IMG/VR virus record: IMGVR_UViG_3300032288_004063
DNA length: 64,000 bases
Direction: 5' to 3' (one strand)
Source: an uncultured virus (IMG/VR IMGVR_UViG_3300032288_004063)
Lineage: Duplodnaviria; Heunggongvirae; Uroviricota; Caudoviricetes
Shown here: positions 28,073 through 61,792 of the stretch, piece after piece
Layout: the number at the start of each line of letters is the position of its first letter
Position numbering within the stretch: the stretch's first letter is position 1
The notes under the pieces: model-generated
What the model was told of the DNA's origin: nothing
The model's input: the letters and a program-made list of their open reading frames with translations, nothing else
Databases searched by the model: none
Program-made: the position numbers and the translations under genes

Positions 28073-28092
28073 ATTTTTTCAGAGAGAGAACC

Positions 28093-28722
28093 ATGGACGA
28101 CACATCAATTCAATACAGAATTCGTTTGGCACAGATCAATGGTATCAAGCTGAATGAAGCAAGAAGTCAGTATGCTACACATGATACTATGACGAAAAAT
28201 TCTTTAGGACAACTTTGGCATAAACATTTTCAGCGCGCACTTGATGCAGCACCCCCTTCAGATAAACTTGAACGCGATGTCGAACATTATCATGGACCAG
28301 AAGCCGCTAAAGATATGAAAAGACACACCAACCTTCTACACTTCAGCGGTGGTTCGGGGCCGAACCGGTTAAGCGCGTTAACCCAAGCTAGAGGATTGAG
28401 AGATAAGCATAACATTCCGCATGACATTTTTGAATCGGTGCAAATGGAACAAATCAATGGCATCAAGCTGAATGAAGCAAAAGAAAAAGATTGGGAACAA
28501 CCTAAACAGGATGATTCATATCATAACATGGAACGTGCATCTGCTATACAGTTATACCATGATGAAATGAGAAACAATACTAGAAACGGGTTATCAAGCA
28601 ATAGAGCACATAAAGAAGCCATGGATGCTGTAGAGAATGAGCATGGTAAATCCGGATTAGATCATCTGCATGGTCATTTTTCGGAGCTAGAATTGAATCG
28701 TAATTCTGAAGAAAACAAATAA
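28093..28722 (+). CDS. leader-cassette family protein 2 (two cargo segments)
   Basis: leader at N-terminus and internal QINGIKLNEA copy. Confidence 0.8.
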   Translation: MDDTSIQYRIRLAQINGIKLNEARSQYATHDTMTKNSLGQLWHKHFQRALDAAPPSDKLERDVEHYHGPEAAKDMKRHTNLLHFSGGSGPNRLSALTQARGLRDKHNIPHDIFESVQMEQINGIKLNEAKEKDWEQPKQDDSYHNMERASAIQLYHDEMRNNTRNGLSSNRAHKEAMDAVENEHGKSGLDHLHGHFSELELNRNSEENK

Positions 28723-28736
28723 TTAGAGAGAGAATC

Positions 28737-29039
28737 ATGGACGACACATCAATTCAATACAGAATCCGTTTGGCACAGATCAATGGTATCAAGCTGGATG
28801 AAGCATTCAGCGATGAACATTTGGATGTGTTGCGTAATACACCCGGTAAAACGCTTGGTGACAAGTTTAATCATTTGGGCCCAGACAAGGCCAGAGAGCT
28901 GATTGAAAAAATCAAGCGCGAACGCACTCAGAATATCAATGCTGGCCAATCGTCATATAAAAATCTCATGCATCACGATCTCGCCATCGGGGCCCACGGG
29001 GCTTGGGTAAGAATTCAACAGAAGCAGAATGATAAATGA
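28737..29039 (+). CDS. leader-cassette family protein 3
   Basis: MDDTSIQYRIRLAQINGIKLDEA. Confidence 0.8.
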   Translation: MDDTSIQYRIRLAQINGIKLDEAFSDEHLDVLRNTPGKTLGDKFNHLGPDKARELIEKIKRERTQNINAGQSSYKNLMHHDLAIGAHGAWVRIQQKQNDK

Positions 29040-29077
29040 ACTAAACAACTGATATAAAATCCATACTATATAATGGT

Positions 29078-29497
29078 ATGGATTATGAAAACCCCTGGCT
29101 TCTAAACGAACAAATTTTTATCTCTGAAATGATAAGCGACCACATCGGATTCGTATATAAAATTACGAATCTTGATAGTGGTCGCTTTTATATTGGCAAA
29201 AAACTCTTTACCCGTGCTGGAAGAAAGCAAGTCAAGGGCAAGAAGAAGAAGATTCGTGTGGAATCTGATTGGAAGAAATATTACTCATCATCAGAAGAAT
29301 TGAATGCGGATGTACAAAAGCTAGGCATTCACAAGTTTCGTAGAGAGATATTGAGACTGTGCAAATCTAGAGGCGAGTTAAACTATTTTGAAGCCAAATA
29401 TCAATTTTCCATGGATGCTCTAGAGTCTGACAACTTTTATAATAATCTAATCATGGTTAGAGTTCATAGATCTCATCTCAAGTTTCTCAAGACTTAA
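29078..29497 (+). CDS. GIY-YIG nuclease-fold protein
   Basis: GFVYKITN...FYIGKK...E. Confidence 0.85.
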
Positions 29498-30070
29498 TTT
29501 TCTCTCCAAAGCCTGTTTTTTTCTACCATCCGTCATTTTTCTTAAATGCTCGGCCGACATTTTTCTACCGGAGGGAACTCCCTTTCTCAAAGTTGAAATT
29601 TTCTTTCGAGTTTCATCTGACCAGAAATATCCCTTCTTACGAGGTTTGCCTTTATTTGCCTCGCTAATTTTTTTTCTATATTCATCAGATTTCATGTATG
29701 ATCTATCTATCTTTCGAAGTTTTTCTACATGCTCTGATGTGTGTTTTCTACCAGTTAATTTTATGCTATGATTTTGACACCATTCTTTCGATCTTAATCC
29801 CGTATTTCCTTCACCACCTTCTGTACGATTTCGAAGAATGCCCGTACCAATATCTTTTCTTCCATACCACAATATGTATCTTCTTTCTAACGCACAAGCG
29901 CCAATATTTGATAGATTGGTTTCCAAAAACACTATTTTGGATTTGTCTTTAGGAACTGGAATATGGTCATGTTTACCAAAAGCTCTTTTGTTTTTTCCTT
30001 TACCTATGTAGTAAGGAGAACCATCTTCGCGCAAATATGCGTAAACGTAAAAGATAAATAAATTTGCCAT
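29447..30070 (-). CDS. GIY-YIG/NUMOD3-type homing endonuclease
   Basis: [24 protein letters not shown](T/W)S.E.R.KIS repeats; antisense insertion with late promoter. Confidence 0.85.
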
Positions 30071-30139
30071 TGCTGATAGCTCCATTCAAGCTGTTAGAGT
30101 CAGTGGGACTGTCATCCGCGACTGACATTTTTATTTATA
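30071..30139 (-). promoter_or_regulatory. late promoter TATAAATA plus structured 5' leader of endonuclease gene
   Basis: GTCAGT-CGC-GGA..TCC-C-ACTGAC-TCTA, then RBS hairpin. Confidence 0.7.
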
Positions 30140-30203
30140 AAGAATGTGAACTTCAACAAATGAACAAGTGGATACAATGCAAGATAAGAAGATCAAGTAA
30201 GAT

Positions 30204-31517
30204 ATGATTGATTTCTTGATTCCTTCATTTTTTGGATTAATTTCTGGAATAATCGTAGGACTAGTTCCGGGTTTAGGATTGTCCACATTTTTATTGCTAT
30301 GTTTTCCTTATTTGATTAGTCAATCTTTATTGTTTTGCGTGATATTTTACTGTGTTGCATCGGCGACCAGTCAATATTTTGGAAGCATAACGACTTTAAC
30401 TTTTGGCATTCCTGGAGAAACGACAAGCTTGCCTCTGTTTGCAATTAGAGACCAAATAATTGATTCAAATAAGTTTAATGAAGCACATTTTTTGTCTTGT
30501 TATGGTAGTTTTGTTGCCTCAATCATTAGTTTGTTTTTATTTTTCGCAATCGTTGATTTTTTTTCTGAAATTATCTTTTACTTAAAAAGCTACATTGCTT
30601 TAATTAGCTTGATTGTAGGATTAATACTATGTGTCTTTTTTAGTAGCAACAAGAAACTAGTATCAATAGCTTTTATAATATTGGGTTGGTACGCCGGCAA
30701 AGTTGGGTATGATCCTCTATACAATCAAGATTTTTTGACGTTCGGAAATGTTTATCTATATTCTGGCATTCCAATATTACCGGCAGTGCTAGGAATTTAT
30801 GCGATACCGAATGTAATTAAAATGATCTATGATTTAGAGCAGATAAAAACTATTCAATTTCACTATGAAAAAGTTTTTGACAAGACAAATCTTGCTTTAC
30901 AACATAGTTTTGTAGCTATTCGATCTTCCTTCATAGGATTCATAAGTGGGATAATTCCATATGTCGGTACAAGCATTAGCAGTTATTTGGCTTTCTTGAT
31001 TGAAAAGAAACTCAATCCAAACAAATTTTTGTATCAAGCAATTGCAGCAGAATCTGCCAACAACTCTGCAAATATTTCAGTTCTTTTTCCGTTGTTGATG
31101 CTATCTGTTGCAATAGTACCAAGTGAATATATCTTATTGGAAATAGTGTCAAATCAAAACGTTTCAGCAATATGGTCAACCATAACTCAGAATGTTTTTT
31201 ATATTTTGTCTTGTTTATTGATTATCAATGCGATTTGTTTTTTGGTATCTTGGAATCTAATCAATTTCATTAGTATGATATTTTTCAAGGCAAAAAGAGT
31301 ATTGTGTTTTTGCATGATATTTCTTATATTGTATGGCGTATATACGATAGGTTTCAATTACGGACAAGAACTATACTACGTTGTTGTCTTGCTTGTGTTT
31401 TCTATTTTTGGATTTTTATTGCGTAAACATGATTTGCTACCTTTTGTATACTGTTTTTTGCTTCAAAATCATATACAACAAATTGTATATAGAGTAACAA
31501 CAATTTATTTTGGATAA
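30204..31517 (+). CDS. TctA-like tripartite tricarboxylate transporter permease (divergent)
   Basis: GLVPGLG, GIPGE, AAESANNS; ~12 TMs. Confidence 0.75.
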   Translation: MIDFLIPSFFGLISGIIVGLVPGLGLSTFLLLCFPYLISQSLLFCVIFYCVASATSQYFGSITTLTFGIPGETTSLPLFAIRDQIIDSNKFNEAHFLSCYGSFVASIISLFLFFAIVDFFSEIIFYLKSYIALISLIVGLILCVFFSSNKKLVSIAFIILGWYAGKVGYDPLYNQDFLTFGNVYLYSGIPILPAVLGIYAIPNVIKMIYDLEQIKTIQFHYEKVFDKTNLALQHSFVAIRSSFIGFISGIIPYVGTSISSYLAFLIEKKLNPNKFLYQAIAAESANNSANISVLFPLLMLSVAIVPSEYILLEIVSNQNVSAIWSTITQNVFYILSCLLIINAICFLVSWNLINFISMIFFKAKRVLCFCMIFLILYGVYTIGFNYGQELYYVVVLLVFSIFGFLLRKHDLLPFVYCFLLQNHIQQIVYRVTTIYFG

Positions 31518-31522
31518 CTGAA

Positions 31523-32767
31523 ATGTTAGAAAACCATCCATACTACAATTTTTATGAACACAGCGGAAAAAAATATCCAAATAAAGTACTAGCTGTATCA
31601 TCATCACGTTTGCCGCAAAACAAGGGAAATACAGTTTGGAAACTTTTTCACTTTGAGAACGAATTGGACAAACTAGATCTGTCACTGGAACCAGAGGAAA
31701 GTTTGCAACAACTATATCTTCAAAGAGCATATGAATTAAGAAACAATTATGATTACCTAATACTAAACTACAGCGGTGGTCCAGATAGTCACAATGTTCT
31801 GGAAACATTTTTGCTCAACAATATATTTCTAGATGAAATCTTCATTTATAGCCAATTCAATGAACAAACCATAGCTCATTTGCAAAAAAACGATCCAGAT
31901 ACCTTTGCAATGTTTCCTGAATTTTATGAAGCTCAGATGAGTGCTATTCCCATTGCAAAACATATGGTAGAAACATATTCTCCACATACAAAGATTACAT
32001 ATGTCGATAACTTTTATGAAACACACAAAAAATTTTGGGAAAGTAAAAACGAAAAAGCCTTTATGGATGACATGAAAGGAAATGCGAGTGTCATGCTAAC
32101 GCATAGGCATATGGATAGATCCAGAAATCCAAATTTCAAGCCCGAATGGAAAATCATCAAGCAAAAAAAGAAAACGGCTCACATATGGGGTATAGAAAAA
32201 CCGAATTTGGTTCATGACGAAAAGGGTGTGTATTTTACTCTAGTTGATAATACAATATTAAGTAGAATCGATTTGCAACATAACTTGACTGTTGAAGATA
32301 TTCCAAATAACCACGAGCTATTTTACATTCATCCAACCGCTGTCAAAATGTTTTTGAAACAGGCTCATGTGATCAATAGAAATTTTTCAAAAAGTTTTTT
32401 TGAGAACCCTGCAATTTTATACGGAACAAGAAAAAAACAAGATGAACTTGCCAGAGTCCTATACTCGTTCAAGACAAAAATACCTTACTCGGGTTTAAAA
32501 AATTCTGATTTAATTTTCAAATATGATAATATGCCTATATTGAAAGAATTAAGTAAAACTGGTATAATACCCGGTTATACAGATATGTCGGAACCACTAA
32601 ATCTAAAACTGTATGTAGATAATAAAGATTCATTAGCCTCCATGAATTATGATAAATTTGTATCTTTCATACAATCAAATTTTTTTAGACACATAGATAG
32701 AAAAGAATTACTATACATATTGTGTATAGGATATGTTAGCAAGAAATACTATATCAAACTCTATTGA
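31523..32767 (+). CDS. PP-loop (SGGxDS) adenine-nucleotide alpha-hydrolase-like protein
   Basis: YSGGPDS. Confidence 0.65.
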   Translation: MLENHPYYNFYEHSGKKYPNKVLAVSSSRLPQNKGNTVWKLFHFENELDKLDLSLEPEESLQQLYLQRAYELRNNYDYLILNYSGGPDSHNVLETFLLNNIFLDEIFIYSQFNEQTIAHLQKNDPDTFAMFPEFYEAQMSAIPIAKHMVETYSPHTKITYVDNFYETHKKFWESKNEKAFMDDMKGNASVMLTHRHMDRSRNPNFKPEWKIIKQKKKTAHIWGIEKPNLVHDEKGVYFTLVDNTILSRIDLQHNLTVEDIPNNHELFYIHPTAVKMFLKQAHVINRNFSKSFFENPAILYGTRKKQDELARVLYSFKTKIPYSGLKNSDLIFKYDNMPILKELSKTGIIPGYTDMSEPLNLKLYVDNKDSLASMNYDKFVSFIQSNFFRHIDRKELLYILCIGYVSKKYYIKLY

Positions 32768-32780
32768 CGGAGAAATTGTC

Positions 32781-33650
32781 ATGTTCAAGTTCGTATTTTT
32801 ATTCTTTTTAATTGTTTTTGGACAATATTCTTTTGCTAAAGAATTGACTATTGTAAATAATGGATCATCCACAGGCATCAATAGTCAATTGCTTCAGGAA
32901 TACGTCAAACAGTTTTCTGAGTACAAAGTCAACATTACCAGCACGAATTCAAATTGTGCCCTAAGCAAGATGTTGTGGGAAAATTCACAAAAACCAACAC
33001 TATATGTACTAACAACAAACATTGATGGATCATCTGATCAAAACAATTCTGTTTGCTATGTTAGAATAGCTAAGGAAAATTTGCTTTTCATAAACTATTC
33101 TGCACCCATTGAGTTGTGTTCAGTAGGAACGAGAACGTGGAAAGATTTGACCGCAAAGAATAGCAGTCACATCATCGGCATCACATCGACCACAACAAAC
33201 ATTCCTGAACAATTTCTTAGCAAATTGGCAAGCAAATACGACATTCAATTAAAGTTGGTTAGAATAAACAATAATTCAGACTTCATGACGCTCGCGAAAG
33301 CACAAGAATTGGATTTTGGATTTAGAACAGGATTGAGTGGTCTAGAATTCTTCAAAGATAAATGCATGTGGAATGTATCTCAATTGGATACAAATAATAT
33401 AATTCCAAATGTGCATGAATTGAAAAAAATGTATGATAATCTCTATGAAGAATCAGTCATCCTTCATAAGAATTTGACAACAGATGAAATCAATGAATTT
33501 AGAAACAAGTTGCAAAGATCTTGGCTATCTAAAGATTCTGTGGCTTTGAGAACTCGTAGGGGATACGATGATACAAGAGTCAAGTATGAAACTGAAGAAG
33601 AAAGATCTAATCTATTTGATAGATTTCTAACTCGACTAGAATCTAAATAA
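32781..33650 (+). CDS. secreted protein, possibly TctC-like solute-binding
   Basis: signal peptide SFA; context with TctA-like gene. Confidence 0.45.
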   Translation: MFKFVFLFFLIVFGQYSFAKELTIVNNGSSTGINSQLLQEYVKQFSEYKVNITSTNSNCALSKMLWENSQKPTLYVLTTNIDGSSDQNNSVCYVRIAKENLLFINYSAPIELCSVGTRTWKDLTAKNSSHIIGITSTTTNIPEQFLSKLASKYDIQLKLVRINNNSDFMTLAKAQELDFGFRTGLSGLEFFKDKCMWNVSQLDTNNIIPNVHELKKMYDNLYEESVILHKNLTTDEINEFRNKLQRSWLSKDSVALRTRRGYDDTRVKYETEEERSNLFDRFLTRLESK

Positions 33651-33670
33651 ATTGCATTCAACTGCAACAC

Positions 33671-33678
33671 TATAAATA
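33671..33678 (+). promoter_or_regulatory. T4-type late promoter TATAAATA
   Basis: exact consensus upstream of the Nudix gene. Confidence 0.75.
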
Positions 33679-33713
33679 TATCGTTCCAATAGTGACATGT
33701 CAAGGAAAATCGC

Positions 33714-34151
33714 ATGAAATCGTTTAGGGAATATCTGCACGAAGAAGATAATGAAAGACTCGCGGCGGGCGCGCTCTTTCATGCATTAGATACAGGCAAA
33801 TATGGTGTCGCTCTACGATCAAAGATTTGCGATCAACCAAACACATATTCGCCTGTAGGCGGTTCATCAGATACAAACGACAAGGATCTAAAAGCTACAG
33901 TCGTGCGTGAAGTCGGTGAAGAGATCGGGCATGAGATCACACCAGAACAACTTGAGCCACTTCATGTGTTCAAGAAAAAAGGATTCCAGTATCACACATA
34001 CTTGTGCAAAGTGCCAAAGCAAGATGATGTTCAACCAAAGCTAAATGACGAGAACGATAGATTTGATTGGTTTGAAAAGCACAAGATGCCCAAGAACCTG
34101 CATCCGGGGTTTGCCGAGATGCTTTCCAAGAGTATGCATAAGCTTCCATAA
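33714..34151 (+). CDS. Nudix hydrolase with capsid-targeting-like leader
   Basis: GG.....D.....VREVGEEIG Nudix box; MKSFREYLHEE. Confidence 0.85.
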   Translation: MKSFREYLHEEDNERLAAGALFHALDTGKYGVALRSKICDQPNTYSPVGGSSDTNDKDLKATVVREVGEEIGHEITPEQLEPLHVFKKKGFQYHTYLCKVPKQDDVQPKLNDENDRFDWFEKHKMPKNLHPGFAEMLSKSMHKLP

Positions 34152-36285: not shown

Positions 36286-36360
36286 CGCAGAGTGGAGCAG
36301 CAGCAGCTCGTCTGGCTCATACCCAGAAGGCCACAGGTGCAAGTCCTGTCTCTGCAACCA
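36286..36360 (+). tRNA. tRNA-fMet(CAT)
   Basis: C1:A72 mismatch, CAT anticodon, CCA. Confidence 0.85.
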
Positions 36361-36511
36361 ATTGTGCTAGGCTCTATGGTAGTCTAGCACATAAGGGTGT
36401 TATTCGATGAAGCCTAGCCAGGTGGAGAATAGCTAGTTGGGTTGCGCGAATCCAACGAAGTCGCAAATGAGCGGTGGCACCGACATTTGTGGAGCCCTTT
36501 CGCAATTACAT

Positions 36512-36599
36512 GGAAGTGTGGGAGAGTGGTTTAATCCGTCAGTCTTGAAAACTGAAGGACCTACGGGTCCCGTGAGTTCGAATCTCACCGCTTCCGCCA
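36512..36599 (+). tRNA. tRNA-Ser(TGA)
   Basis: cloverleaf, long variable arm, CCA. Confidence 0.95.
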
Positions 36600-36603
36600 T
36601 TAT

Positions 36604-36679
36604 GGAGCATTCGTCTAGAGGCCTAGGACCGCGGGCTTTCAATCCGCTAACAGGGGTTCGAATCCCCTATGCTCTACCA
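36604..36679 (+). tRNA. tRNA-Glu(TTC)
   Basis: cloverleaf, CCA. Confidence 0.9.
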
Positions 36680-36772
36680 ATTTTGCATGTTTTTGAGATA
36701 AAACATGCCGTACCTATCCGCGAGAGCTTAATAGACACAGGTGAGGTAGGTCATTCTGTGTCACAAAATCAG

Positions 36773-36849
36773 GCCCGTGTAGCCCAACTGGCAGAGGCGC
36801 CAGTCTTAGGTACTGGAGGTTGTCGGTTCAAATCCGACCGCGGGCACCA
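36773..36849 (+). tRNA. tRNA-Leu(TAG), short variable loop
   Basis: cloverleaf, CCA. Confidence 0.9.
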
Positions 36850-36854
36850 AATAT

Positions 36855-36929
36855 GGGTTGTTAGCTCAGAGGTAGAGCAGCGTCTTTACACGGCGAATGT
36901 CGGCGGTTCGATCCCGTCACGACCCACCA
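36855..36929 (+). tRNA. tRNA-Val(TAC)
   Basis: cloverleaf, CCA. Confidence 0.93.
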
Positions 36930-37026
36930 CTACAGCCGGATTACTAAGAAGCGGTTTCTAGATCTGCTTCGGTGCGTACCGGTAGAGGACCCCGTCACCT
37001 CTTAAAAAAATCGTGGAGCTTTTTAT

Positions 37027-37102
37027 GGACCAGTAGCTCAATTGGTAGAGCGTCGGACTCTTACTCCGTAGGTTCTCGGTTCAAATCCGAGCTGGTCTTC
37101 CA
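37027..37102 (+). tRNA. tRNA-Lys(CTT)
   Basis: cloverleaf, U73, CCA. Confidence 0.9.
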
Positions 37103-37108
37103 ATCATC

Positions 37109-37184
37109 GGGGCATTAGCTCAATCAGGAGAGCGCCTGCTTTGCAAGCAGGAGGCAGTCGGGGCGGAACCGACATGCTCCACCA
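37109..37184 (+). tRNA. tRNA-Ala(TGC), atypical T-loop
   Basis: G3:U70, T-loop GGCGGAA, CCA. Confidence 0.9.
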
Positions 37185-37188
37185 AGAT

Positions 37189-37356
37189 GCGAGTGCAGAT
37201 GCTGAGAAATTAGATGTAGGCATACATCTGAGAGTCCAACGGTGCGAGTCCGATCCAGAGACTGGACAAGTAACAGCTGCAACTGCTTACCTCTAACCCG
37301 GCGCGCCTAGTTTACACGGGTAAAATGAGTCCGAATGAGGGAGGCGGACTGCTCGC
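37189..37356 (+). ncRNA. unidentified structured RNA
   Basis: closing GCGAG..CAG/CTGCTCGC helix, several internal hairpins, no ORF. Confidence 0.4.
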
Positions 37357-37365
37357 TACTAATAT

Positions 37366-37442
37366 GGAGGCTATCGTCTAATGGTTGAGGACGGCGGTCT
37401 GTGACTCCGCAGGTGAGGGTTCAATTCCCTCTAGTCTCCCCA
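37366..37442 (+). tRNA. tRNA-His(GTG)
   Basis: encoded G-1:C73, CCA. Confidence 0.9.
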
Positions 37443-37450
37443 AATTTTAT

Positions 37451-37526
37451 GTCCCTATCATCTAATGGTTTAGGATATTGCCCTCTCAAGGCAAAAATAC
37501 GGGTTCAAATCCCGTTAGGGATACCA
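37451..37526 (+). tRNA. tRNA-Glu(CTC)
   Basis: cloverleaf, CCA. Confidence 0.9.
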
Positions 37527-37532
37527 GTTTAT

Positions 37533-37606
37533 TGGGGAATCGTCTAGTGGTAGGACTGCGGCCTTTGACTCCGCCTACGGTGGTTCGAATCCATCTTCCC
37601 CAGCCA
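37533..37606 (+). tRNA. tRNA-Gln(TTG)
   Basis: U1:A72, cloverleaf, CCA. Confidence 0.92.
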
Positions 37607-37611
37607 TTTGC

Positions 37612-37685
37612 TGCCCTTTCGTCTAACGGTAGGACACTCGGCTCTGAACCGATTAGTTGTGGTTCGAATCCATGAAGGGCAACCA
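37612..37685 (+). tRNA. tRNA-Gln(CTG)
   Basis: cloverleaf, CCA. Confidence 0.92.
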
Positions 37686-37689
37686 ATAT

Positions 37690-37763
37690 ATCAGCGTAGT
37701 GTAACGGTAGCACGGCAGCCTCCAAAACTGCTTGTCAGGGTTCAAATCCTTGCGCTGGTGCCA
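37690..37763 (+). tRNA. tRNA-Trp(CCA)
   Basis: cloverleaf, G73, CCA. Confidence 0.92.
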
Positions 37764-37767
37764 TTAT

Positions 37768-37857
37768 GGAGAGTGGGCAGGACGGTAATGCAGCGGTTTG
37801 CTAAACCGTAGATCGCCTAAAAACGGTCACAGGGTTCGATTCCCTGACTCTCCGCCA
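37768..37857 (+). tRNA. tRNA-Ser(GCT)
   Basis: long variable arm, CCA. Confidence 0.93.
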
Positions 37858-37866
37858 AATTAGTGC

Positions 37867-37924
37867 TTGACAATGCCAAGCACATAGCGTAATATGCACA
37901 TATTGATGTTTGACAACTGAATAT
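37867..37924 (+). promoter_or_regulatory. sigma70-type promoter followed by boxA-like element
   Basis: TTGACA-17-TAATAT then GATGTTTGACAACTGAATAT. Confidence 0.6.
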
Positions 37925-38001
37925 GCTCCTGTAGCTCAACGGACTAGAGCTGCTCGTTTCTACCGAGAAGGTTGTGGGTTCGAATCCTGCCAGGAGCGCC
38001 A
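37925..38001 (+). tRNA. tRNA-Arg(TCT)
   Basis: cloverleaf, CCA. Confidence 0.92.
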
Positions 38002-38009
38002 GTTTCTAG

Positions 38010-38376
38010 TAAGGGGTTTGATGCGGAACACTATTTATAGTGTCCCGATAGGGATCAAGGGTCTTGCTAGAGAGCCATTCACACTCTTACTGTTTGTTGG
38101 TGAAGGTTTGAAAGTAAACAGCATTCACTAGGTTTACTGATTTTTCCGAGAGGTGAATGGGCCATTACAAAAAACGGGCCGTGTTGATGCGGCGTCTCGC
38201 AAGGGAGTATCAACAACTTCACACTCTGAGCTGTCGGTTGGTGAAGTTTATATAGATGACAGGACGTTCCAGTCTGTGTGGGGGATTGGAAAAGAGAACA
38301 TGGCAAGATGCAGTTGATCGATGCGGCGAACTGTAAATCCAGGGGCCGAGCCGCCATCTTGTGCATAGCCCACACA
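38010..38376 (+). ncRNA. unidentified structured RNA region with duplicated pseudoknot-like motif
   Basis: TTCAC..CTGT..GTGAA..ACAG twice; GTGTGGG/CCCACAC long hairpin. Confidence 0.45.
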
Positions 38377-38383
38377 AATTTAT

Positions 38384-38458
38384 TCCGACCTAGCTCAATG
38401 GTAGAGCATTCGGCTGTTAACCGAATGGTTGCTGGTTCGAGTCCAGCGGTCGGAGCCA
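38384..38458 (+). tRNA. tRNA-Asn(GTT)
   Basis: cloverleaf, CCA. Confidence 0.95.
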
Positions 38459-38462
38459 ATAT

Positions 38463-38536
38463 ACCACACGATGCGGTTTCATCGCCTGCGTCTCATAAGC
38501 GCGGAGCTTCTGGTTCAACTCCAGAGTGTGGTACCA
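38463..38536 (+). tRNA. atypical tRNA(CAT) with degenerate D arm
   Basis: 7-bp acceptor, T arm, CTCATAA loop, CCA; lacks normal D-loop consensus. Confidence 0.7.
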
Positions 38537-38558
38537 AGTTGTGTCATACATTCATTTA

Positions 38559-38634
38559 GGACTGATAGCATAATGGTCAATGCCCTCTGCTCATAACAGA
38601 AACTATGGGGGTTCGAATCCCTCTCGGTCCACCA
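38559..38634 (+). tRNA. tRNA(CAT), Met or Ile2
   Basis: cloverleaf, CCA. Confidence 0.9.
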
Positions 38635-39087
38635 TTATCCAATATAATGATTAGATTTTCTTCTATTTTCTTCTTTTGTTAAATATTGAAGATTATCTTC
38701 ATGGTGCCAACCACCAAGAGATAATGGAATAATATGATCTACTTCATATCCTTCAGGACACAATTTGTAGATCTGTTTAATTTTATCTCTATTGGCCGTT
38801 GGATGAATTTTTCTTAGTTCTTTTGCGCGATACTTTGCTTGACGTTCTTTGTTTTTGGATTGATGATGTTTTTTATCTATAATTTTATAATATGATCCAC
38901 AGCAAATGCTTGAGCAAAATTTTCTGCGAGAACTTGAACATAAATTGTTGCAAACCAAACATAAACTTTTCGGTTTTCCTCTACGAGGACGATGTTTATT
39001 GGTGTATGTTGCAGAACACGATTGAGAACAAAATTTATGATTGCTAGTTTCCTTGCTGCAAACAAGGCAATAAATAGTGTTTGACAT
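38635..39087 (-). CDS. HNH homing endonuclease with zinc-finger repeats
   Basis: CxxC..FCS..C repeats; EVDHIIPL..GG.H..DNLQ.L...EN..KSN. Confidence 0.88.
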   Translation of the reverse strand: MSNTIYCLVCSKETSNHKFCSQSCSATYTNKHRPRRGKPKSLCLVCNNLCSSSRRKFCSSICCGSYYKIIDKKHHQSKNKERQAKYRAKELRKIHPTANRDKIKQIYKLCPEGYEVDHIIPLSLGGWHHEDNLQYLTKEENRRKSNHYIG

Positions 39088-39162
39088 TGCTGTGTCTCCG
39101 TTGTAAGATATTGGACATAGAGTGGATGGAAGTTCGCGCTTCGCGATCCACACTTATTTATC
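39088..39162 (-). promoter_or_regulatory. late promoter (GATAAATA) plus structured 5' leader of HNH gene
   Basis: GTGGAT-CGC-GAAG..CTTC-C-ATCCAC-TCTA, same architecture as 30071-30139. Confidence 0.7.
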
Positions 39163-39169
39163 TGAATAC

Positions 39170-39244
39170 GCTCGTCTAGTTCAATGGCAAGAACATCCAC
39201 CTCGTAAGTGGAAGATCAAGGCTCGATTCCTTGGATGAGCACCA
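39170..39244 (+). tRNA. tRNA-Thr(CGT)
   Basis: cloverleaf, CCA. Confidence 0.9.
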
Positions 39245-39253
39245 AAATCATGC

Positions 39254-39329
39254 TTGACAATAAGTCAGACATGATGTAGTATACAAACAATAGATGCGAA
39301 AGCATCGCTGATGTTTGACAATTAAATAT
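39254..39329 (+). promoter_or_regulatory. sigma70-type promoter followed by boxA-like element
   Basis: TTGACA-17-TAGTAT then GATGTTTGACAATTAAATAT. Confidence 0.6.
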
Positions 39330-39426
39330 GTGACGTTTAGTGTAGTGGTAGCACGGAAAGTCCGAGACACAGTAATGTGGAGTAGGCACCCAATGTCTAG
39401 CAATGGTTCGATTCCATTAGCGTCAC
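39330..39426 (+). ncRNA. tRNA-like RNA with expanded non-anticodon centre, no CCA
   Basis: acceptor GTGACGTT/AGCGTCAC, canonical D arm and T arm. Confidence 0.6.
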
Positions 39427-39441
39427 TTTTAATCCACATTT

Positions 39442-39516
39442 GCCCTCATAGCACAGCGGTAGTGCAGCGGTTTTGTAAACCGAAGGCCGGGAGTTCGATC
39501 CTCTCTGGGGGCACCA
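39442..39516 (+). tRNA. tRNA-Thr(TGT)
   Basis: cloverleaf, CCA. Confidence 0.93.
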
Positions 39517-39523
39517 GTTCAAT

Positions 39524-39601
39524 GGTCCGTTGGTCTAGACGGCTTAAGACACCCGCCTGTCACGCGGGAGATCACGGGTTCGAATCCCGTACGGATCGCC
39601 A
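39524..39601 (+). tRNA. tRNA-Asp(GTC)
   Basis: cloverleaf, CCA. Confidence 0.95.
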
Positions 39602-39605
39602 ATAT

Positions 39606-39681
39606 GGGGGTATAGCTCAGTTAGTAGAGCAATCGGCCGATAACCGATAGGTCGCAGGGGCAGAACCTGCTACCCCTACCA
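39606..39681 (+). tRNA. tRNA-Ile(GAT), atypical T-loop and C33
   Basis: loop CCGATAA, T-loop GGCAGAA, CCA. Confidence 0.88.
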
Positions 39682-39685
39682 TTGC

Positions 39686-39885
39686 TACCATTTGAAAGCA
39701 CACTGACGGATCGAGTTGAACATCCAGCTATAGCAACCTTGAGGTTCGAGTCCTCTCTCAATCTGGAAAGATTGTGTTGGTTTCGGTAACTGTTGCTGGA
39801 AGTTGAATTCGATTCGGTCCCCTGGCAGGGGCGAAAGATATCTGTGCCAGCAGATAATTCGATATCAGTGTGCCTTCAAATGGTA
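39686..39885 (+). ncRNA. long-stem-enclosed RNA A (second family)
   Basis: TACCATTTGAAAGCACACTGA/TCAGTGTGCCTTCAAATGGTA; internal T-arm GAGG-TTCGAGT-CCTC. Confidence 0.65.
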
Positions 39886-39902
39886 TGTGATGTTAAATCG
39901 TC

Positions 39903-40044
39903 TATCATTTGTAAGCACATTCGTTGCTGAGTCGCAATTCAGTTGCTGAGTCGCTATCAGTGACTGAGTCGCAATCAGTACGGAATATAGGGAGTCATGA
40001 CCCTAGTAGGTTCAAATCCTACCCGAATGTGCTTTCAAATGGTA
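39903..40044 (+). ncRNA. long-stem-enclosed RNA B (second family)
   Basis: TATCATTTGTAAGCACATTCG/CGAATGTGCTTTCAAATGGTA; three CTGA-GTCGC.A-TCAG hairpins; T-arm. Confidence 0.65.
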
Positions 40045-40103
40045 TTTTGTGCTAAACCAACAGTAGACTATAGGATGTGATAAAGCTGCCAGTTCAAATC
40101 AAT

Positions 40104-40179
40104 GGACCTCTAGCTCAATTGGCAGAGCAGCATCCTTTTAAGTTGTTGGTTCAGGGTTCGACTCCCTGGAGGTCCTCCA
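40104..40179 (+). tRNA. tRNA-Lys(TTT)
   Basis: cloverleaf with weak anticodon stem, U73, CCA. Confidence 0.88.
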
Positions 40180-40183
40180 ATTT

Positions 40184-40258
40184 GGTCCCTTAGTATAACG
40201 GAAAGAACATCTGACTACGAATCAGAAGGTGGGGGTTCGATTCCTCCAGGGACTACCA
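40184..40258 (+). tRNA. tRNA-Arg(ACG)
   Basis: cloverleaf, CCA. Confidence 0.92.
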
Positions 40259-40265
40259 GTACAAC

Positions 40266-40343
40266 CCGTGTGTAGCTCAGTCTGGCCAGAGCACTCCGTT
40301 TGGGGCGGAGGGGTCGTAGGTTCAAATCCTACTACACGGACCA
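40266..40343 (+). tRNA. tRNA-Pro(TGG)
   Basis: cloverleaf, CCA. Confidence 0.95.
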
Positions 40344-40363
40344 TTTTAATCATGTGAGGTATC

Positions 40364-40597
40364 ATGCAGCTAACCAATCTGAATGAGATGCAAAAAGCAC
40401 TCTGCGAAATTCTTTGGGAACTTGATGATCACAAAGAAGTCGGTGCTTTTCTTGATGGTCTTCCTACCAGAATCAGGCAAGATGCCCATAACATGATCGA
40501 ACTAATGATCTTAAATAAGATTGATGAAACTGAGGCAACTGATATTGCCGATGATATCGTCAATAAAATCCTTGCAAAAAAGAAAGATACTGAGTAG
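40364..40597 (+). CDS. hypothetical protein
   Basis: GAGGT RBS, 77 aa. Confidence 0.7.
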   Translation: MQLTNLNEMQKALCEILWELDDHKEVGAFLDGLPTRIRQDAHNMIELMILNKIDETEATDIADDIVNKILAKKKDTE

Positions 40598-40630
40598 AAT
40601 AACAAAGTGGAGTAAAGAAGGAAAGTTACC

Positions 40631-41188
40631 ATGTCTATCGGTCTTAGAACTCTTGTCTTGAACGCGGACTATCATCCAATTTCTCTGTTTCCTCTACACA
40701 CAATTCCTGTAGAAGATGCAGTGACACGCTTGTTCAATGGTACATGCCAAATGGTATTTGAGCATGATAGAAAGATTCTAACGCCGTCTCTGGACATGCG
40801 TTGGCCGTCTGTCATTGCTCGTATTGATACCAAGCGTGTCAAAGAGCGTGTCAAGCTTGGTGCGGAAGGTTTGTACTATCGTGATCACGGTCTGTGCGCG
40901 TACTGTGAAACGCCACTGACGTTGAAGTGCATCACGTTCGACCATGTCGTGCCAAAGTCTAAGGGTGGTGGATATACATGGGACAATCTTGTCTCTGCGT
41001 GTTCTACCTGTAATCTGCTCAAGGGCGATTCGATGCCTGTTGGTAGATGGAAGCCCAAGAAGCAGCCTTATAAGCCCTCTTACTATGATTTGCTTGCAAT
41101 TCGGAAGAAGTTTCCGATTCAGGTAGATGACGAGAACTGGCTGCAGTTCATTGGTAAGTGGGATGCACCTGTGGTGGTCAGGAACTAG
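40631..41188 (+). CDS. HNH endonuclease family protein
   Basis: LVLNADY.P; RD..CAYC, TFDHVVPKSKGG..WDNLV.AC..CN..K. Confidence 0.9.
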   Translation: MSIGLRTLVLNADYHPISLFPLHTIPVEDAVTRLFNGTCQMVFEHDRKILTPSLDMRWPSVIARIDTKRVKERVKLGAEGLYYRDHGLCAYCETPLTLKCITFDHVVPKSKGGGYTWDNLVSACSTCNLLKGDSMPVGRWKPKKQPYKPSYYDLLAIRKKFPIQVDDENWLQFIGKWDAPVVVRN

Positions 41189-41240
41189 AAATAGTTCTTG
41201 ACTATCTCAGAGAGAACTGATATAGTTAGTGAATAAATAC

Positions 41241-41333
41241 GGGAGTGTTGGTACTATGGCGTGTGTGCCCTCCGACTGTAAATCGGATCCCTTGTGGTAA
41301 ACGATGCTGGTTCGAATCCGGCCACTCCCACCA
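41241..41333 (+). tRNA. tRNA-Tyr(GTA)
   Basis: GTA anticodon, long variable region, CCA. Confidence 0.88.
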
Positions 41334-41336
41334 ATT

Positions 41337-41410
41337 GCGGCGTTAGTATAATGGTATTATTACAGCCTTCCAAGCTGAAGACGCGGGTTCGATTCCCGCA
41401 CGCCGCTCCA
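41337..41410 (+). tRNA. tRNA-Gly(TCC)
   Basis: cloverleaf, U73, CCA. Confidence 0.95.
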
Positions 41411-41416
41411 AATTTT

Positions 41417-41491
41417 GCGGGCATAGCTCAGTGGTAGAGCGTCACGTTGCCAACGTGAATGTCGTCGGTTCGACCCCGATTGCCCGCTCCA
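41417..41491 (+). tRNA. tRNA-Gly(GCC)
   Basis: cloverleaf, U73, CCA. Confidence 0.95.
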
Positions 41492-41719
41492 GCAAATGTC
41501 AGAAACACGACGTTTAGTAATAGGCTTCTCATCTATGAAAACCGTTGTCTAGTATGACAGAATCAGCAACCGCTAAAGGTGTGAGAGCCAATGCGTTGTC
41601 CCATAAGTGTTGCCAAAGGATGACTGTAACCTTCAAATATGAAGTGTGTAGCTAAGGTACACACTCAATCGAGGCTTTCTAGATTGTGCCAGCATAGCAA
41701 AACAATCTACACCATTTTC

Positions 41720-41796
41720 GCCCTTGTATCCCAATTGGCAGAGGAGGCGGCTTCAAACTCCGCATGTTGTCGGTTCGACTCCGACCGAGGGCACCA
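41720..41796 (+). tRNA. tRNA-Leu(CAA), short variable loop
   Basis: Leu-type D arm, A73, CCA. Confidence 0.85.
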
Positions 41797-41929
41797 AACA
41801 CCGATGTGGTAACCAAACCACACGGTTAGCATAGAAGTACGTTAGAGTTTGAGCGTTTAAAGTGACGTAATGACACAATGGGTTCCTAGGCCATTGTGGA
41901 ATCATCTCCCGCTTCTATGTGATTTATTT

Positions 41930-42005
41930 GTGCATGTGACCCGAACGGCTAGGGACATGACTGCAACTCATGTATATGTAGGTTCAACTCCTATCATGCA
42001 CTCCA
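41930..42005 (+). tRNA. tRNA-Cys(GCA)
   Basis: cloverleaf, U73, CCA. Confidence 0.92.
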
Positions 42006-42009
42006 TTAC

Positions 42010-42085
42010 GGACTGTTGGTGAAGCTGGTGCTCACATTCGCCTGAAGAGCGAAGGAACTCTGTTCGATTCAGAGACAGTCCACCA
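42010..42085 (+). tRNA. tRNA-Phe(GAA)
   Basis: cloverleaf, CCA. Confidence 0.9.
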
Positions 42086-42089
42086 TTTT

Positions 42090-42164
42090 GGGACCATAGC
42101 TCAGTGGTAGAGCATCTGCTCGACACGCAGAGGGTCGTTGGTTCAAATCCATCTGGTCCCACCA
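42090..42164 (+). tRNA. tRNA-Val(GAC)
   Basis: cloverleaf, C33, CCA. Confidence 0.9.
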
Positions 42165-42165
42165 T

Positions 42166-42240
42166 GCCCTCATAGTACAGTGGCTAGTACATCGCTTTGG
42201 TAAAGCGGAGATGGCAGTTCAATTCTGCCTGAGGGCACCA
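42166..42240 (+). tRNA. tRNA-Thr(GGT)
   Basis: cloverleaf, CCA. Confidence 0.93.
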
Positions 42241-47317: not shown

Positions 47318-48880
47318 TCATCTACTAATACTACCTAAATTCATATACCAACCAGCAGCAGTCAAGTTCACATTCTTCAATTGCTTGTTTGAAGCAATCT
47401 TGAATGTAGGTTGTACAAGATTTATGAAAATAGCTTCATCGACCATGTTTTTCTGATACTGTTCATACATCGCATTTCTACGAATGACATTAGACTCCAT
47501 AGCTCCCATTTCAGCAAGATCAACAAGATCCTTTGATGGCTGCCAATGCATTCTTTTTGCGATTCCTCTCACAAAAGGTTTTGTCCACAAACTAGGTTCA
47601 AGTGCATCGATTGTAAATGATACGATAGATGCTTGAAGTTTTGCGGTCCTGTATTGTGTTGTTACTGAAGACGCATCCATTGGAGTCAGATTGACTTTGA
47701 TATTGATCTTGGCAAGATCCGATTGAATTTTTTGTGCCAATAGTGATGTGCTAACATTTAGAGTTGGAGTTGTTGAGTATGCAAAATTGAATTCAAATCC
47801 ATTTGGATTATTCGACATGCTCAAATGCTTTCTTGCCTTTTCTAGATCAAATCTATATCCAAACTTTTCAGTTTGTTCGTTTGTCGCACCACCAATTCCA
47901 ATTGGAAGAATTGATGCTGGTCTTATGCCATAATTACCAAGAAGATTTTTGATGATACCATCATAATCAATTGCATGTGCAATTGCTAGTCGCGCATTCT
48001 TGTTTGCAAGGGCGCTATTCAACTGTGAACCGTTTGTTAGTGCCATGTAGACATAGTCCAAACTTGGTTCAGATACAATTCTAAAATCTTTGTTCTTAGC
48101 CAGTTCGATCTGTTCATTTGACAGATTGAATGCGATGTCGATGTCATTTCTCTGTAGAGCTAGAAACTGTGCAGCGCCATCAGCAATGTGGCGAATGATC
48201 ACTCTATCAAAGTGCAATTTTTCATGCCAAAATGAATTGCGTTCAAGAACAACAATCTCATTTCTTGTCCATCGTGTCATTCTATATGGGCCAGAACCAT
48301 AAGACTTTTCATCAAGATGTCTTGTTGCTGTATCTTTGTCTTTTGATGTCTCATTGCTGACACCACCAAGAGCCTCAAGTTGTTTCTTTGAAAAAATTGA
48401 AAGAGACACAGTTGTCAAAATAGGAAGTAATGGCTCTTGAGGATTTTCCATAAAAACATCAAAAGTTGTGTTGTCTATCACGACAGTTTCTTTTATGTTC
48501 TCGGCAAAATATGCGGGCTGATCTTTCAGATTCTTTAGTCTATCAAAAGAAAATTTTACATCATGTGCGGTAACAGGTTCTCCGTTCCAAAATTTGGCAT
48601 TTTCGCGAAGATAGAATCTCCACGATTTTCCAGAATTAGAAGACTCCCATCTCTTTGCAAGTGCTGGTTTTAGGTCCTCATAATTATTTGCCGAAACAGT
48701 GATCAAAGTCTCGTATACATTACCTAAAGTCAGTGGCGGAGAAACTTCTGCTTGACGAGATGGATCATATGTTCGCCCGTCAGAAATATTCATACCAATA
48801 ATTAGTGTCCTATCTCGTTGAGCGTGAGCATTGAACGCAAGTAGGAAAATTGATAAAATGATAGACAAAAACTTTTTCAT
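47318..48880 (-). CDS. ABC transporter substrate-binding protein (family 5, peptide/nickel)
   Basis: signal peptide; YETL, PALA..W, F.LR..KF.NG.PVTA.DVKFSF, GSGPY. Confidence 0.92.
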   Translation of the reverse strand: MKKFLSIILSIFLLAFNAHAQRDRTLIIGMNISDGRTYDPSRQAEVSPPLTLGNVYETLITVSANNYEDLKPALAKRWESSNSGKSWRFYLRENAKFWNGEPVTAHDVKFSFDRLKNLKDQPAYFAENIKETVVIDNTTFDVFMENPQEPLLPILTTVSLSIFSKKQLEALGGVSNETSKDKDTATRHLDEKSYGSGPYRMTRWTRNEIVVLERNSFWHEKLHFDRVIIRHIADGAAQFLALQRNDIDIAFNLSNEQIELAKNKDFRIVSEPSLDYVYMALTNGSQLNSALANKNARLAIAHAIDYDGIIKNLLGNYGIRPASILPIGIGGATNEQTEKFGYRFDLEKARKHLSMSNNPNGFEFNFAYSTTPTLNVSTSLLAQKIQSDLAKINIKVNLTPMDASSVTTQYRTAKLQASIVSFTIDALEPSLWTKPFVRGIAKRMHWQPSKDLVDLAEMGAMESNVIRRNAMYEQYQKNMVDEAIFINLVQPTFKIASNKQLKNVNLTAAGWYMNLGSISR

Positions 48881-53480: not shown

Positions 53481-53572
53481 CGGCGCCGGTGTTGGTACAC
53501 AGGGAGGTCTTATAAACCTTTCAGCGGCAGATTACCGTTCTCGACTGGATTCGATTTCCAGGGCGCCGACCA
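53481..53572 (+). tRNA. atypical tRNA(TAT) with long variable arm
   Basis: CGGCGCC/GGCGCCG acceptor, CTTATAA loop, T arm, CCA. Confidence 0.75.
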
Positions 53573-53576
53573 ACTT

Positions 53577-53653
53577 GCCCACGTAGACCAACCGGCAGAG
53601 TCAGGAGACTTAAAATCTCTGTAGTGCGAGTTCGAATCTCGCCGTGGGCACCA
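53577..53653 (+). tRNA. tRNA-Leu(TAA), short variable loop
   Basis: cloverleaf, CCA. Confidence 0.92.
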
Positions 53654-61332: not shown

Positions 61333-61692
61333 ATGAAGACTTTCAAGAACATGGCTGCGCAGGGTGATTTCATCATCATGCGCGTGGACAATCTTCCCAA
61401 GGGACTTGAGAAGATCGATCCAAAGAACAACACCTATACGGTGGCACACTCGGAGACTGGTCATGACCACGTGATGGTCATGGAGCGTCCTGGCACCGTC
61501 GAGGCTTTCAAGGAGAAGGGTGCCAGCGACGTTGATCTCTATGAGATGTTTCTGCTGGTAACGGAGGATACTCCGATTGAGCATAGGCGCGCATGGGACA
61601 CCCATGAGACTCTGCTTGTTCCTCCTGGAAAGTACAAGATCCGTCGTCAGCGTGAGTATGTGCCGGAGGGTTTCCGCAAGGCTGCTGACTGA
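61333..61692 (+). CDS. His-rich beta-fold conserved protein (partner of DUF6745-like gene)
   Basis: AQGD, HSETGHDH, H...TH, PPG.Y.IRRQREY.P. Confidence 0.8.
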   Translation: MKTFKNMAAQGDFIIMRVDNLPKGLEKIDPKNNTYTVAHSETGHDHVMVMERPGTVEAFKEKGASDVDLYEMFLLVTEDTPIEHRRAWDTHETLLVPPGKYKIRRQREYVPEGFRKAAD

Positions 61693-61763
61693 TCCTGAAT
61701 TCCTGAGCGATGTTTGCTTAGAGCGGTTGGAGAATTAGTTCTCGCGAACCGCATTTTTTCTGC

Positions 61764-61792
61764 TTGACAATACCAATCATACATCGTATCAT
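61764..61792 (+). promoter_or_regulatory. sigma70-type promoter
   Basis: TTGACA-17bp-TATCAT. Confidence 0.75.

Follow-up and report, generated by a model that had tools for sequence, protein, structure and literature searches.

The window analysed here, i.e., the whole stretch of 64,000 nucleotides, is part of a 138,877-base virus record that encodes a T4-type major head protein and a late sigma factor (PHROGs); the sigma gene present in this genome is of the gp55 type and was found with PHROGs, a Sigma70_r4 search having missed it. Two nuclease genes on the minus strand of the window carry copies of one structured element at their 5' ends, and a third copy stands without a nuclease gene. The following features have been located.

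29447..30070, minus strand: gene for a free-standing GIY-YIG-like endonuclease with a NUMOD3 motif, 207 aa, opposite to its neighbours
30054..30060, plus strand: pOUT box ATAAATA of copy 1, within nuclease codons 4-6; predicted RNA start near 30066
30068..30070, minus strand: nuclease start codon of copy 1, read from the sequence, with the SD GGAG at 30083-30080 (minus strand)
30073..30097, plus strand: hairpin P3 of copy 1, 9 bp with two G.U pairs (MFE), base CUG/UAG, loop with part of the anti-SD
30098, plus strand: linker between P3 and P1/P2 of copy 1, a single A
30099..30126, plus strand: hairpin P1/P2 of copy 1, consisting of 6 bp, a bulged G, 1 bp, a bulged G, 3 bp and a 6-nt loop
30127..30138, plus strand: U-rich tail 3' of P1 of copy 1, overlapping the pIN box; predicted 3' end of the outward RNA
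30132..30139, minus strand: pIN box TATAAATA of copy 1, late-promoter-like, for the nuclease mRNA
38635..39087, minus strand: gene for an HNH endonuclease of 150 aa, flanked by tRNA-Met and tRNA-Thr and running against the tRNA cluster
39070..39162, plus strand: whole cassette of copy 2, 61.1 bits (this copy was in the model training set)
Parts of copy 2: pOUT 39070-39076, P3 39090-39120, A 39121, P1/P2 39122-39151, pIN 39162-39155 (minus strand)
61703..61759, plus strand: orphan copy 3, comprising both hairpins and AUUUUUU and lacking a nuclease gene, an SD and late boxes

The gene at 29447-30070 gives a NUMOD3 match (E=3e-6) and a weak match to the homing endonuclease PHROG 314 (E=2e-5), and residues 1-95 of its protein have ESM Atlas neighbours at 0.94-0.96 that include GIY-YIG clusters. 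Since the Pfam GIY-YIG model does not match this protein, the family call is made with moderate confidence. The gene at 38635-39087 is matched by Pfam HNH and by a PHROG of HNH type (E=6e-12). The two proteins have no mutual similarity (best BLASTP E = 1.8), in agreement with the earlier note on this DNA, which had called the two genes unrelated.

Read from its sequence, the element is a cassette of about 85 bp between two facing boxes that resemble T4-type late promoters, one lying upstream of the nuclease gene (pIN) and the other inside its first codons (pOUT). The core pattern has three matches in the window, at 30095-30121 (copy 1, minus strand), 39118-39146 (copy 2, minus strand) and 61719-61747 (copy 3), and none in each of 100 shuffles. 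With a covariance model, five copies were found in the whole genome, four heading nuclease genes and one without a nuclease. The leaders described earlier for the two nuclease genes are thus present with the sequences given for them, a third copy in the window having been overlooked; the extent assigned to copy 1, 30068-30140, encloses the core and falls short of the second box at 30054-30060. A loose pattern run over the own genome was dropped, because it gave 73 matches and its reversed control 80.

Some further observations concern the surroundings of these genes. The stop codon of the HNH gene abuts the CCA end of the opposite-strand tRNA-Met gene (38559-38634; junction 38632-38637), and a second HNH gene in the tRNA cluster (40631-41188, plus strand) is co-directional with its neighbours and has no cassette. 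ARAGORN called 33 tRNA genes in 36286-42240 and 53481-53653, including long atypical calls at 39936-40030 and 53481-53572, and Rfam added one further tRNA at 39331-39426. Only tRNAs reached gathering scores in the Rfam search of the window, which gave four chance matches (E 3.9-7.2) around copy 1, so that the cassette matches no Rfam family. Phage genes in the window include a TctA tricarboxylate-transporter-like gene (30204-31517) and a family 5 solute-binding-protein gene (47318-48880). Two small genes next to each other have a 5' stretch of ~81 bases in common (28081-28161 and 28725-28806); it is single copy in locus L461, a close relative.

Covariation and the strand of the fold

Three pattern scans of IMG/VR gave an estimated ~2,000, ~2,000 and ~4,400 stretches, chance matches included, and among the distinct matches listed for the loosest pattern 89 of 123 have paired stems. 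The pattern that does not require pairing, from which the 104 cores below come, gave 78 matches in GTDB genomes, of which only 15 are paired (13 of these, judged by eye, are the cassette on MAG contigs), and thus the pattern alone does not create the stems. The member set used below consists of 195 distinct sequences with intact stems and sufficient flank from at least 382 IMG/VR loci; a CAGY-start context could be parsed in 180 of them, and 106 have a complete ORF of at least 100 aa. These members are mutually related, and all counts are of sequences, not of independent events.

With a pattern that does not require pairing, 104 distinct cores were obtained, in which P1 positions 1-4 are Watson-Crick paired in 94, 100, 102 and 99 cores, respectively; shuffles reach maxima of 55-78, and slid pairing gives 69-122 of 312-416 cells. 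The two free positions of P2 are paired in 102-103 of the 104. The compensatory stem changes that the earlier note had seen between two copies therefore hold far beyond them. RNAalifold, applied to 62 opposite-strand rows (the two window copies and 60 of the 104 members, of typical length), predicts two hairpins with a one-base joint and both-side changes in 15 of 19 pairs. A separate pair counter agrees with this fold on rows preselected for pairing, and a pairing figure of 99.4% and one table of TCTA against CAGC come from members selected for those features and are not taken as proof.

Several parts regarded previously as invariant loops or linkers proved to be paired or variable. In the "CGC/C loop", two bulged Gs flank a single pair, which is G/C in 150, A/C in 38, A/T in 7 and G/T in none of the 195 members. 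TCTA and CAGC are the two arms of the P3 base (CUG/UAG on the opposite strand), and they change together: TTTA occurs with CAAC and without CAGC in 38 of 38 members. These come from a scan that let the C of TCTA vary and gave 40 intact-stem members among 74 distinct matches; the TTTA group may have descended from few events. Among TCTA members from scans not requiring CAGC, 98 of 112 have CAGC and two have CAAC alone. A G-C swap at the P3 base is seen in one IMG/VR member and in phage XG4, and none of 20 distinct matches from a scan that varied the T of TCTA has intact stems. The start context CAGCATG, also described as fixed, is the commonest form and is found at only 68 of 106 loci.

The loops have some features of their own. 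The MFE structure of the opposite strand is P3-A-P1 in 174 of 180 members, and in 163 of these 174 the P3 loop contains the anti-SD C-run. A required U-turn loop was not found, YUNR being present in 66 mRNA-strand and 57 opposite-strand loops of the 195, with loops occurring in both orientations. P2 loops occur in both orientations at similar counts (TTGGCG 13 and CGCCAA 10; CGGCAA 10 and TTGCCG 9), which suggests frequent loop inversion. The commonest P2 loop pair (TTGGCG/CGCCAA) presumably equals the Inc target loop of ColIb-P9, which gives a lead, and bulges near the loop matter in plasmid antisense RNAs. Pairing of the ATAAATA and TATTTAT boxes as an RNA helix was considered and rejected: the downstream box varies (GTAAATA, ATAAGTA, ATATATA) and the upstream box stays A/CTAAATA.

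Imperfect pairs can tell the strands apart, because an A.C mismatch on one of them corresponds to a G.U wobble on its complement. Across the 195 members, the imperfect P1/P2 cells on the mRNA strand are A.C in 23 cases, C.A in 9, G.T or T.G in none and other in 2; the corresponding P3 counts are 88 for A.C/C.A and 2 for T.G, and P1 cells taken without any pairing filter give 21 A.C/C.A and 1 G.U. These mRNA-strand mismatches are G.U wobbles on the opposite strand. The bias extends over 19 distinct P1 contexts and over both classes of gene orientation (22 in 75 loci and 14 in 31), which argues against a replication-strand artefact. Folding energy is lower for the opposite strand in 172 of 180 members, and the z-score against own shuffles in 144 of 180. 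On account of the wobble asymmetry, the folding energies and the RNAalifold consensus, the sequences and models place the fold on the plus strand of the window, opposite to the nuclease mRNA and not on the mRNA strand to which it had been assigned. Some observations count against this placement: the loop-closing positions are mixed (T.G 11 and 34, C.A 8 and 58), the mRNA strand folds too (mean -12.8 kcal/mol, z -1.2), and two or more of the four SD bases are paired there in 147 of 175 cases.

Promoter-like boxes, orientation and termination

Of 180 members, 171 have a variant of the pOUT box, and these boxes fall in each of the three reading frames; of 894 control windows, 30 have one. The spacing from pOUT to GCTG is 4-6 nt in 161 of the 171, and it is still 5 nt in all six members with the ATG inside P3. 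By its sequence, pOUT is conserved as DNA, and the common nuclease starts MTIY, MNIY and MYL encode the opposite-strand late box. The four full copies of this genome have a spacing that is rare in the family (11-12 nt; 11 in copy 1), and their predicted RNA consequently gains a short 5' tail over the start codon, departing from the family norm. In this genome, 18 of 25 ATAAATA occurrences sit 8-70 nt before an ORF on the same strand, compared with 4.6% of positions; ATAAATA thus behaves as a promoter motif here, and pIN and pOUT are putative promoters. The late consensus reported for cyanophage S-PM2 is NATAAATA (PMC2984593).

The pIN box was recorded in 186 of 195 members, many of which had been found by patterns requiring it; among the 89 paired matches of the pattern without this requirement, 67 have it by a test for the ATAAATA type that missed CTAAATA. 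The spacing of pIN is 3-5 nt in 177 of the 186, and the predicted nuclease mRNA starts at the foot of the hairpins, both arms of both hairpins lying downstream of pIN in copies 1 and 2. Since both promoters look late, their timing gives no obvious switch.

That start at the hairpin foot would suit a cis-regulatory leader acting on the nuclease mRNA itself, by ligand, protein or RBS control, as would the residual folding of the mRNA strand with its partly paired SD and the use of RBS hairpins by T-even endonucleases (PMC2988022). We consider such a leader quite unlikely, since all the strand-informative stem counts favour the opposite strand, the supposedly invariant loop and linkers are paired or variable, and the position of pIN, outside the hairpins, differs from that in the T4 lock. 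Of the cis-regulatory RNA proposed earlier, the conserved covarying structure stands, and the ligand- or protein-sensing leader on the mRNA strand has found no support. A riboswitch or ribozyme is likewise improbable, there being no Rfam match and no invariant unpaired core on the mRNA strand.

The orientation of the nuclease gene was compared with that of its neighbours, called by the longest ORF, a crude rule that left out 23 genes. Among the 83 genes with both neighbours called, 55 are opposite to both, 20 run with both and 8 are mixed. The pOUT box is kept at 69 of 75 opposite-orientation loci and at all 31 co-oriented loci, where there is no phage gene ahead on its strand, and its role is thus not only promoter donation. 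The reading that pOUT donates a late promoter to a phage gene cut off by the insertion, the hairpins being a stabilising 5' end of that mRNA and the nuclease becoming hard to lose, is in our opinion unlikely. Embedded promoters do occur in T4 segG and others (PMC2988022), most nuclease genes are opposite to their neighbours, and the insertion of copy 1 parts two genes whose ends share ATGA in the empty allele; at the 31 co-oriented loci, however, box and fold are kept with nothing ahead to serve, and many opposite-orientation neighbours show a TTGACA-type promoter of their own after the tail (from rows viewed, uncounted).

The tail has a mean of 5.1 U in its first 9 nt (106 loci), starts with A, and is an interrupted U-run that also spells pIN. 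Its U content is the same in both orientation classes (p=0.9), by which the idea of a stronger tail in co-oriented loci was dropped, and a simple terminator scan was negative for both copy 1 and the orphan. Beyond the hairpin, 59 of 75 opposite-orientation loci lack a late box, and at copy 1 the downstream TctA-like gene has no exact late box, so that read-through may be needed there.

Orphan copy 3 scores 36.8 bits (E=1e-6) with the model, from whose training set it was absent. It has six Us and G.U pairs in its hairpins on the plus strand, lies between the stop codon of the gene at 61333-61692 and a sigma-70-like (TTGACA) promoter at 61764, and is kept in three of three close relatives. Distant orthologous loci number 13; in five of them, from about three independent lineages, the place of the orphan is taken by a plain hairpin and T-run, and the other eight run on to the next gene. 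The sequence context makes it likely that the orphan serves as a terminator, and at the nuclease-bearing cassettes termination appears plausible, perhaps partial.

It is conceivable, if doubtful, that the main role of the fold is to terminate transcripts running against the nuclease gene, whether from pOUT or from phage genes, or to insulate their 3' ends, repression being by promoter collision or by long antisense read-through and not by a discrete small RNA. The orphan, which keeps the fold with neither SD, late boxes nor nuclease, the plain terminators at its orthologous loci and the prevalence of nuclease genes opposite to both neighbours speak for such an insulator. Against it, termination needs neither P3 nor the anti-SD loop nor the two bulges, eight of the 13 orthologous loci have no such terminator, and orphans are rare: about one in 89 paired matches has no ORF and lacks both boxes.

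Nuclease partners, spread and mobility

Pfam-type matches (E up to 0.01) among the 106 downstream ORFs comprise 15 of GIY-YIG type, 15 HNH, 5 HNH_3 and 47 NUMOD3, many ORFs having none, and the N-terminal 90 residues form six clusters of 5-28 members, two pairs and eight singletons. The element thus occurs with different nuclease families, as the earlier note supposed from its two genes, and it also marks nuclease genes missed by Pfam. An RNA-guided nuclease is barely credible, because the partner families are unrelated and at least 47 of the 106 carry a NUMOD3 DNA-binding motif of their own. The nearest cassette belongs to the same nuclease cluster in 21 of 94 cases (chance 20%), and in one pair of cassettes identical at 54 of 55 nt, one heads a GIY-YIG-type gene and the other an HNH_3-type gene. 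Judged by these sequences, cassette and nuclease are reassorted, probably by recombination between cassettes, and a pair such as the last gives a route for shuffling of nuclease domains.

Cultured carriers were found by way of a protein search. The model matched two of five records chosen from 40 protein hits, PV558790.1 and PP712099.1, by which the idea becomes testable by ordinary RNA work. The first is phage V45v66, which infects Variovorax sp. SCN45, with the cassette at 85992-86071, and the second is the Pseudoalteromonas phage vB_Psh_XG4, with the cassette at 56131-56218. A blastn search with the cassette as query found no match in 50,697 phage records, and a model search of T4, Aeh1, Aeromonas phage 25 and S-PM2 matched none of the four. 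Cassettes with no nuclease ORF were seen in L088 (match at 132), L125 and L019, the one in L088 lying just before what appears by eye to be a terminase large-subunit gene. Synechococcus phage S-SRM01 (L462, 1380-1500) has a related nuclease with a different leader, a hairpin between two late boxes, which does not match the cassette model R1; the record calls the protein "translation initiation factor 2".

The relative L461, which has no copy 1 nuclease, matches window positions 29036-29407 at 85% and 30163-33840 at 98.5%. Positions 29408-30162 are replaced in it, including a new 3' end of the neighbouring gene, so that this is not a clean insertion; its SegE-like gene has a different end, which overlaps the TctA-like gene by ATGA. 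By its sequence, this empty allele fits homing with co-conversion and not a clean cut-and-paste. In two RNA runs (word shares 0.09 and 0.06; assembled contigs, which hold no strand or end information), one contig of low depth connects 29367 with 30163, as an empty allele would. In the window, a mini-ORF of 15 codons (30160-30207, plus strand) is the old SegE-like 3' end as in L461 and overlaps the TctA-like start by ATGA; it may preserve translational coupling after the insertion. The SegE-like GIY-YIG gene (29078-29497, plus strand) extends into the 3' end of the copy 1 nuclease gene and differs at its C-terminus from the 85%-identical L461 allele; it may be the target of this nuclease, recoded on its arrival.

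No conserved 3' end was found at the 106 loci, the best 7-mer being present in 20 of 106 and all of them A/T-rich, compared with 91 of 106 at the 5' end. The mobility-related element of the earlier note is not borne out by these results, the empty allele being a replacement together with flanking DNA. Hairpins of attC, REP and IS200/IS605 ends act in single-stranded DNA, and the cassette could by analogy be an end recognised by a recombinase or an HUH transposase. Its G.T wobbles and bulged bases would suit a DNA hairpin as well, it moves between nuclease families, and its boxes form a short terminal inverted repeat. A DNA end of this kind is nevertheless highly improbable: the 106 genes show no conserved second end, the one empty allele examined is imprecise (29408-30162 replaced), as expected of homing with co-conversion, and the boxes match the promoter usage of this genome.

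Proposed control and comparison with known systems

From the observed layout, covariation, strand bias and spread, we propose, with a probability of roughly 0.55, that the portable cassette makes a cis-antisense RNA of ~65-70 nt that blocks translation of the nuclease. Judging from the spacing, late RNA polymerase would start the nuclease mRNA ~5 nt downstream of pIN, at the foot of the mirror hairpins. Transcription from pOUT would start the opposite-strand RNA, predicted to fold as P3-A-P1/P2 and likely to end in the U-rich tail. By layout, this predicted outward RNA is fully complementary to the leader, to the SD and, in this genome, to the start codon. By analogy with known antisense RNAs, it would pair through its anti-SD loop and bulged hairpin and exclude ribosomes, and the repression would grow as genome copies accumulate, as in the multicopy inhibition of IS10. 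Where the nuclease gene is opposite to its neighbours, read-through phage transcripts would carry the same fold at their 3' ends. The pattern of sharing between unrelated nuclease genes is observed, and the exchange was likely by recombination.

Pairing in cis alone does not explain the near-constant G bulges, nor P3 in the orphan, which has no target. A further reading, offered here tentatively and as doubtful, is that the cassette is an autonomous plug-in head that captures unrelated nucleases by recombination and gives them promoter, RBS, first codons and a brake, its double-G-bulge RNA being read by one shared phage factor, by which all the homing endonucleases would form one regulon.

The papers cited below are considered with those parts of their texts and supplements that were available. 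In IS10/Tn10, the antisense RNA-OUT of ~69 nt covers the translation initiation region, and repression rises with copy number (PMC5006887). The cassette resembles this RNA-OUT/RNA-IN pair in that a pIN and a pOUT face each other where the enzyme gene of a mobile element begins; unlike it, the cassette uses T4-type late boxes and two G-bulged hairpins and is common to unrelated GIY-YIG and HNH genes, and its RNA and repression are predictions. The art200 RNA of IS200 is cis-encoded opposite the 5' UTR of the transposase, with mRNA structure over the RBS and involvement of Hfq (PMC4513863). An antisense strand opposite the 5' UTR and mRNA structure over the RBS are shared with the cassette, whereas the gene there is a transposase in bacterial chromosomes and the genes here are nucleases. 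As sequence families, RNA-OUT and art200 are not represented by the cassette, which has no Rfam match and nucleases as its downstream genes.

RBS-sequestering hairpins have been described for T-even I-TevI/II/III, segB, Aeh1 mobE and seg43(25) (PMC2988022), and hairpins also for fractured-gene endonucleases (PMC2677866). The cassette shares with this T-even lock a late promoter and hairpins before GIY-YIG or HNH genes of T4-like phages. The T-even hairpins form in the mRNA, and their promoter is so placed that one arm is lost from the transcript, whereas the promoter of the cassette lies outside both hairpins and is faced by a second box, and the fold fits the other strand; of the three features of the lock, the cassette has the late promoter, and neither the arm-removing promoter placement nor a structure conserved on the mRNA strand. 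The five Motif 1 rows in the supplement of Dassa (PMC2677866), as far as it was available, also differ from the cassette.

A comparable case by target is CfrI of cyanophage S-PM2, an antisense RNA of ~225 nt that has been shown experimentally and spans psbA and a nuclease gene (PMC2984593); within the literature searched, it is the one reported antisense RNA against an endonuclease gene of a T4-like phage. The cassette RNA, which is a prediction, would likewise act against a homing-endonuclease gene in such a phage. It would be much shorter (~65-70 nt), and S-PM2 has no match to the model. Fremin et al. (2023, PMC10690425) predicted structured RNAs of 67-97 nt from IMG/VR, of which DNAVirus_8080, _1290, _227 and _5494 lie within 25 bp upstream of GIY-YIG and/or HNH genes, DNAVirus_8080 with both families. 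By the table description, on which this comparison is based, one of these candidates may be the present cassette. The main text of that paper, in its available form, does not mention endonuclease leaders, the word occurring once, in the reference list. Our literature search, within the texts accessible, found no account of the cassette; a catalogue entry may exist in PMC10690425 or PMC5737381.

It is only partly understood how T4-like phages tolerate many toxic homing endonucleases, some of which are encoded in the opposite direction to their neighbours. Of those in T4 itself, only segD is so placed (PMC2988022), and in two thirds of the cassette carriers the nuclease gene is. If the proposed control is true, the cassette would be a general answer to this problem, i.e., a transposon-style antisense control built from late promoters. 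By analogy, it likely works like RNA-OUT while standing outside that family, and would represent cis-antisense control in a new form.
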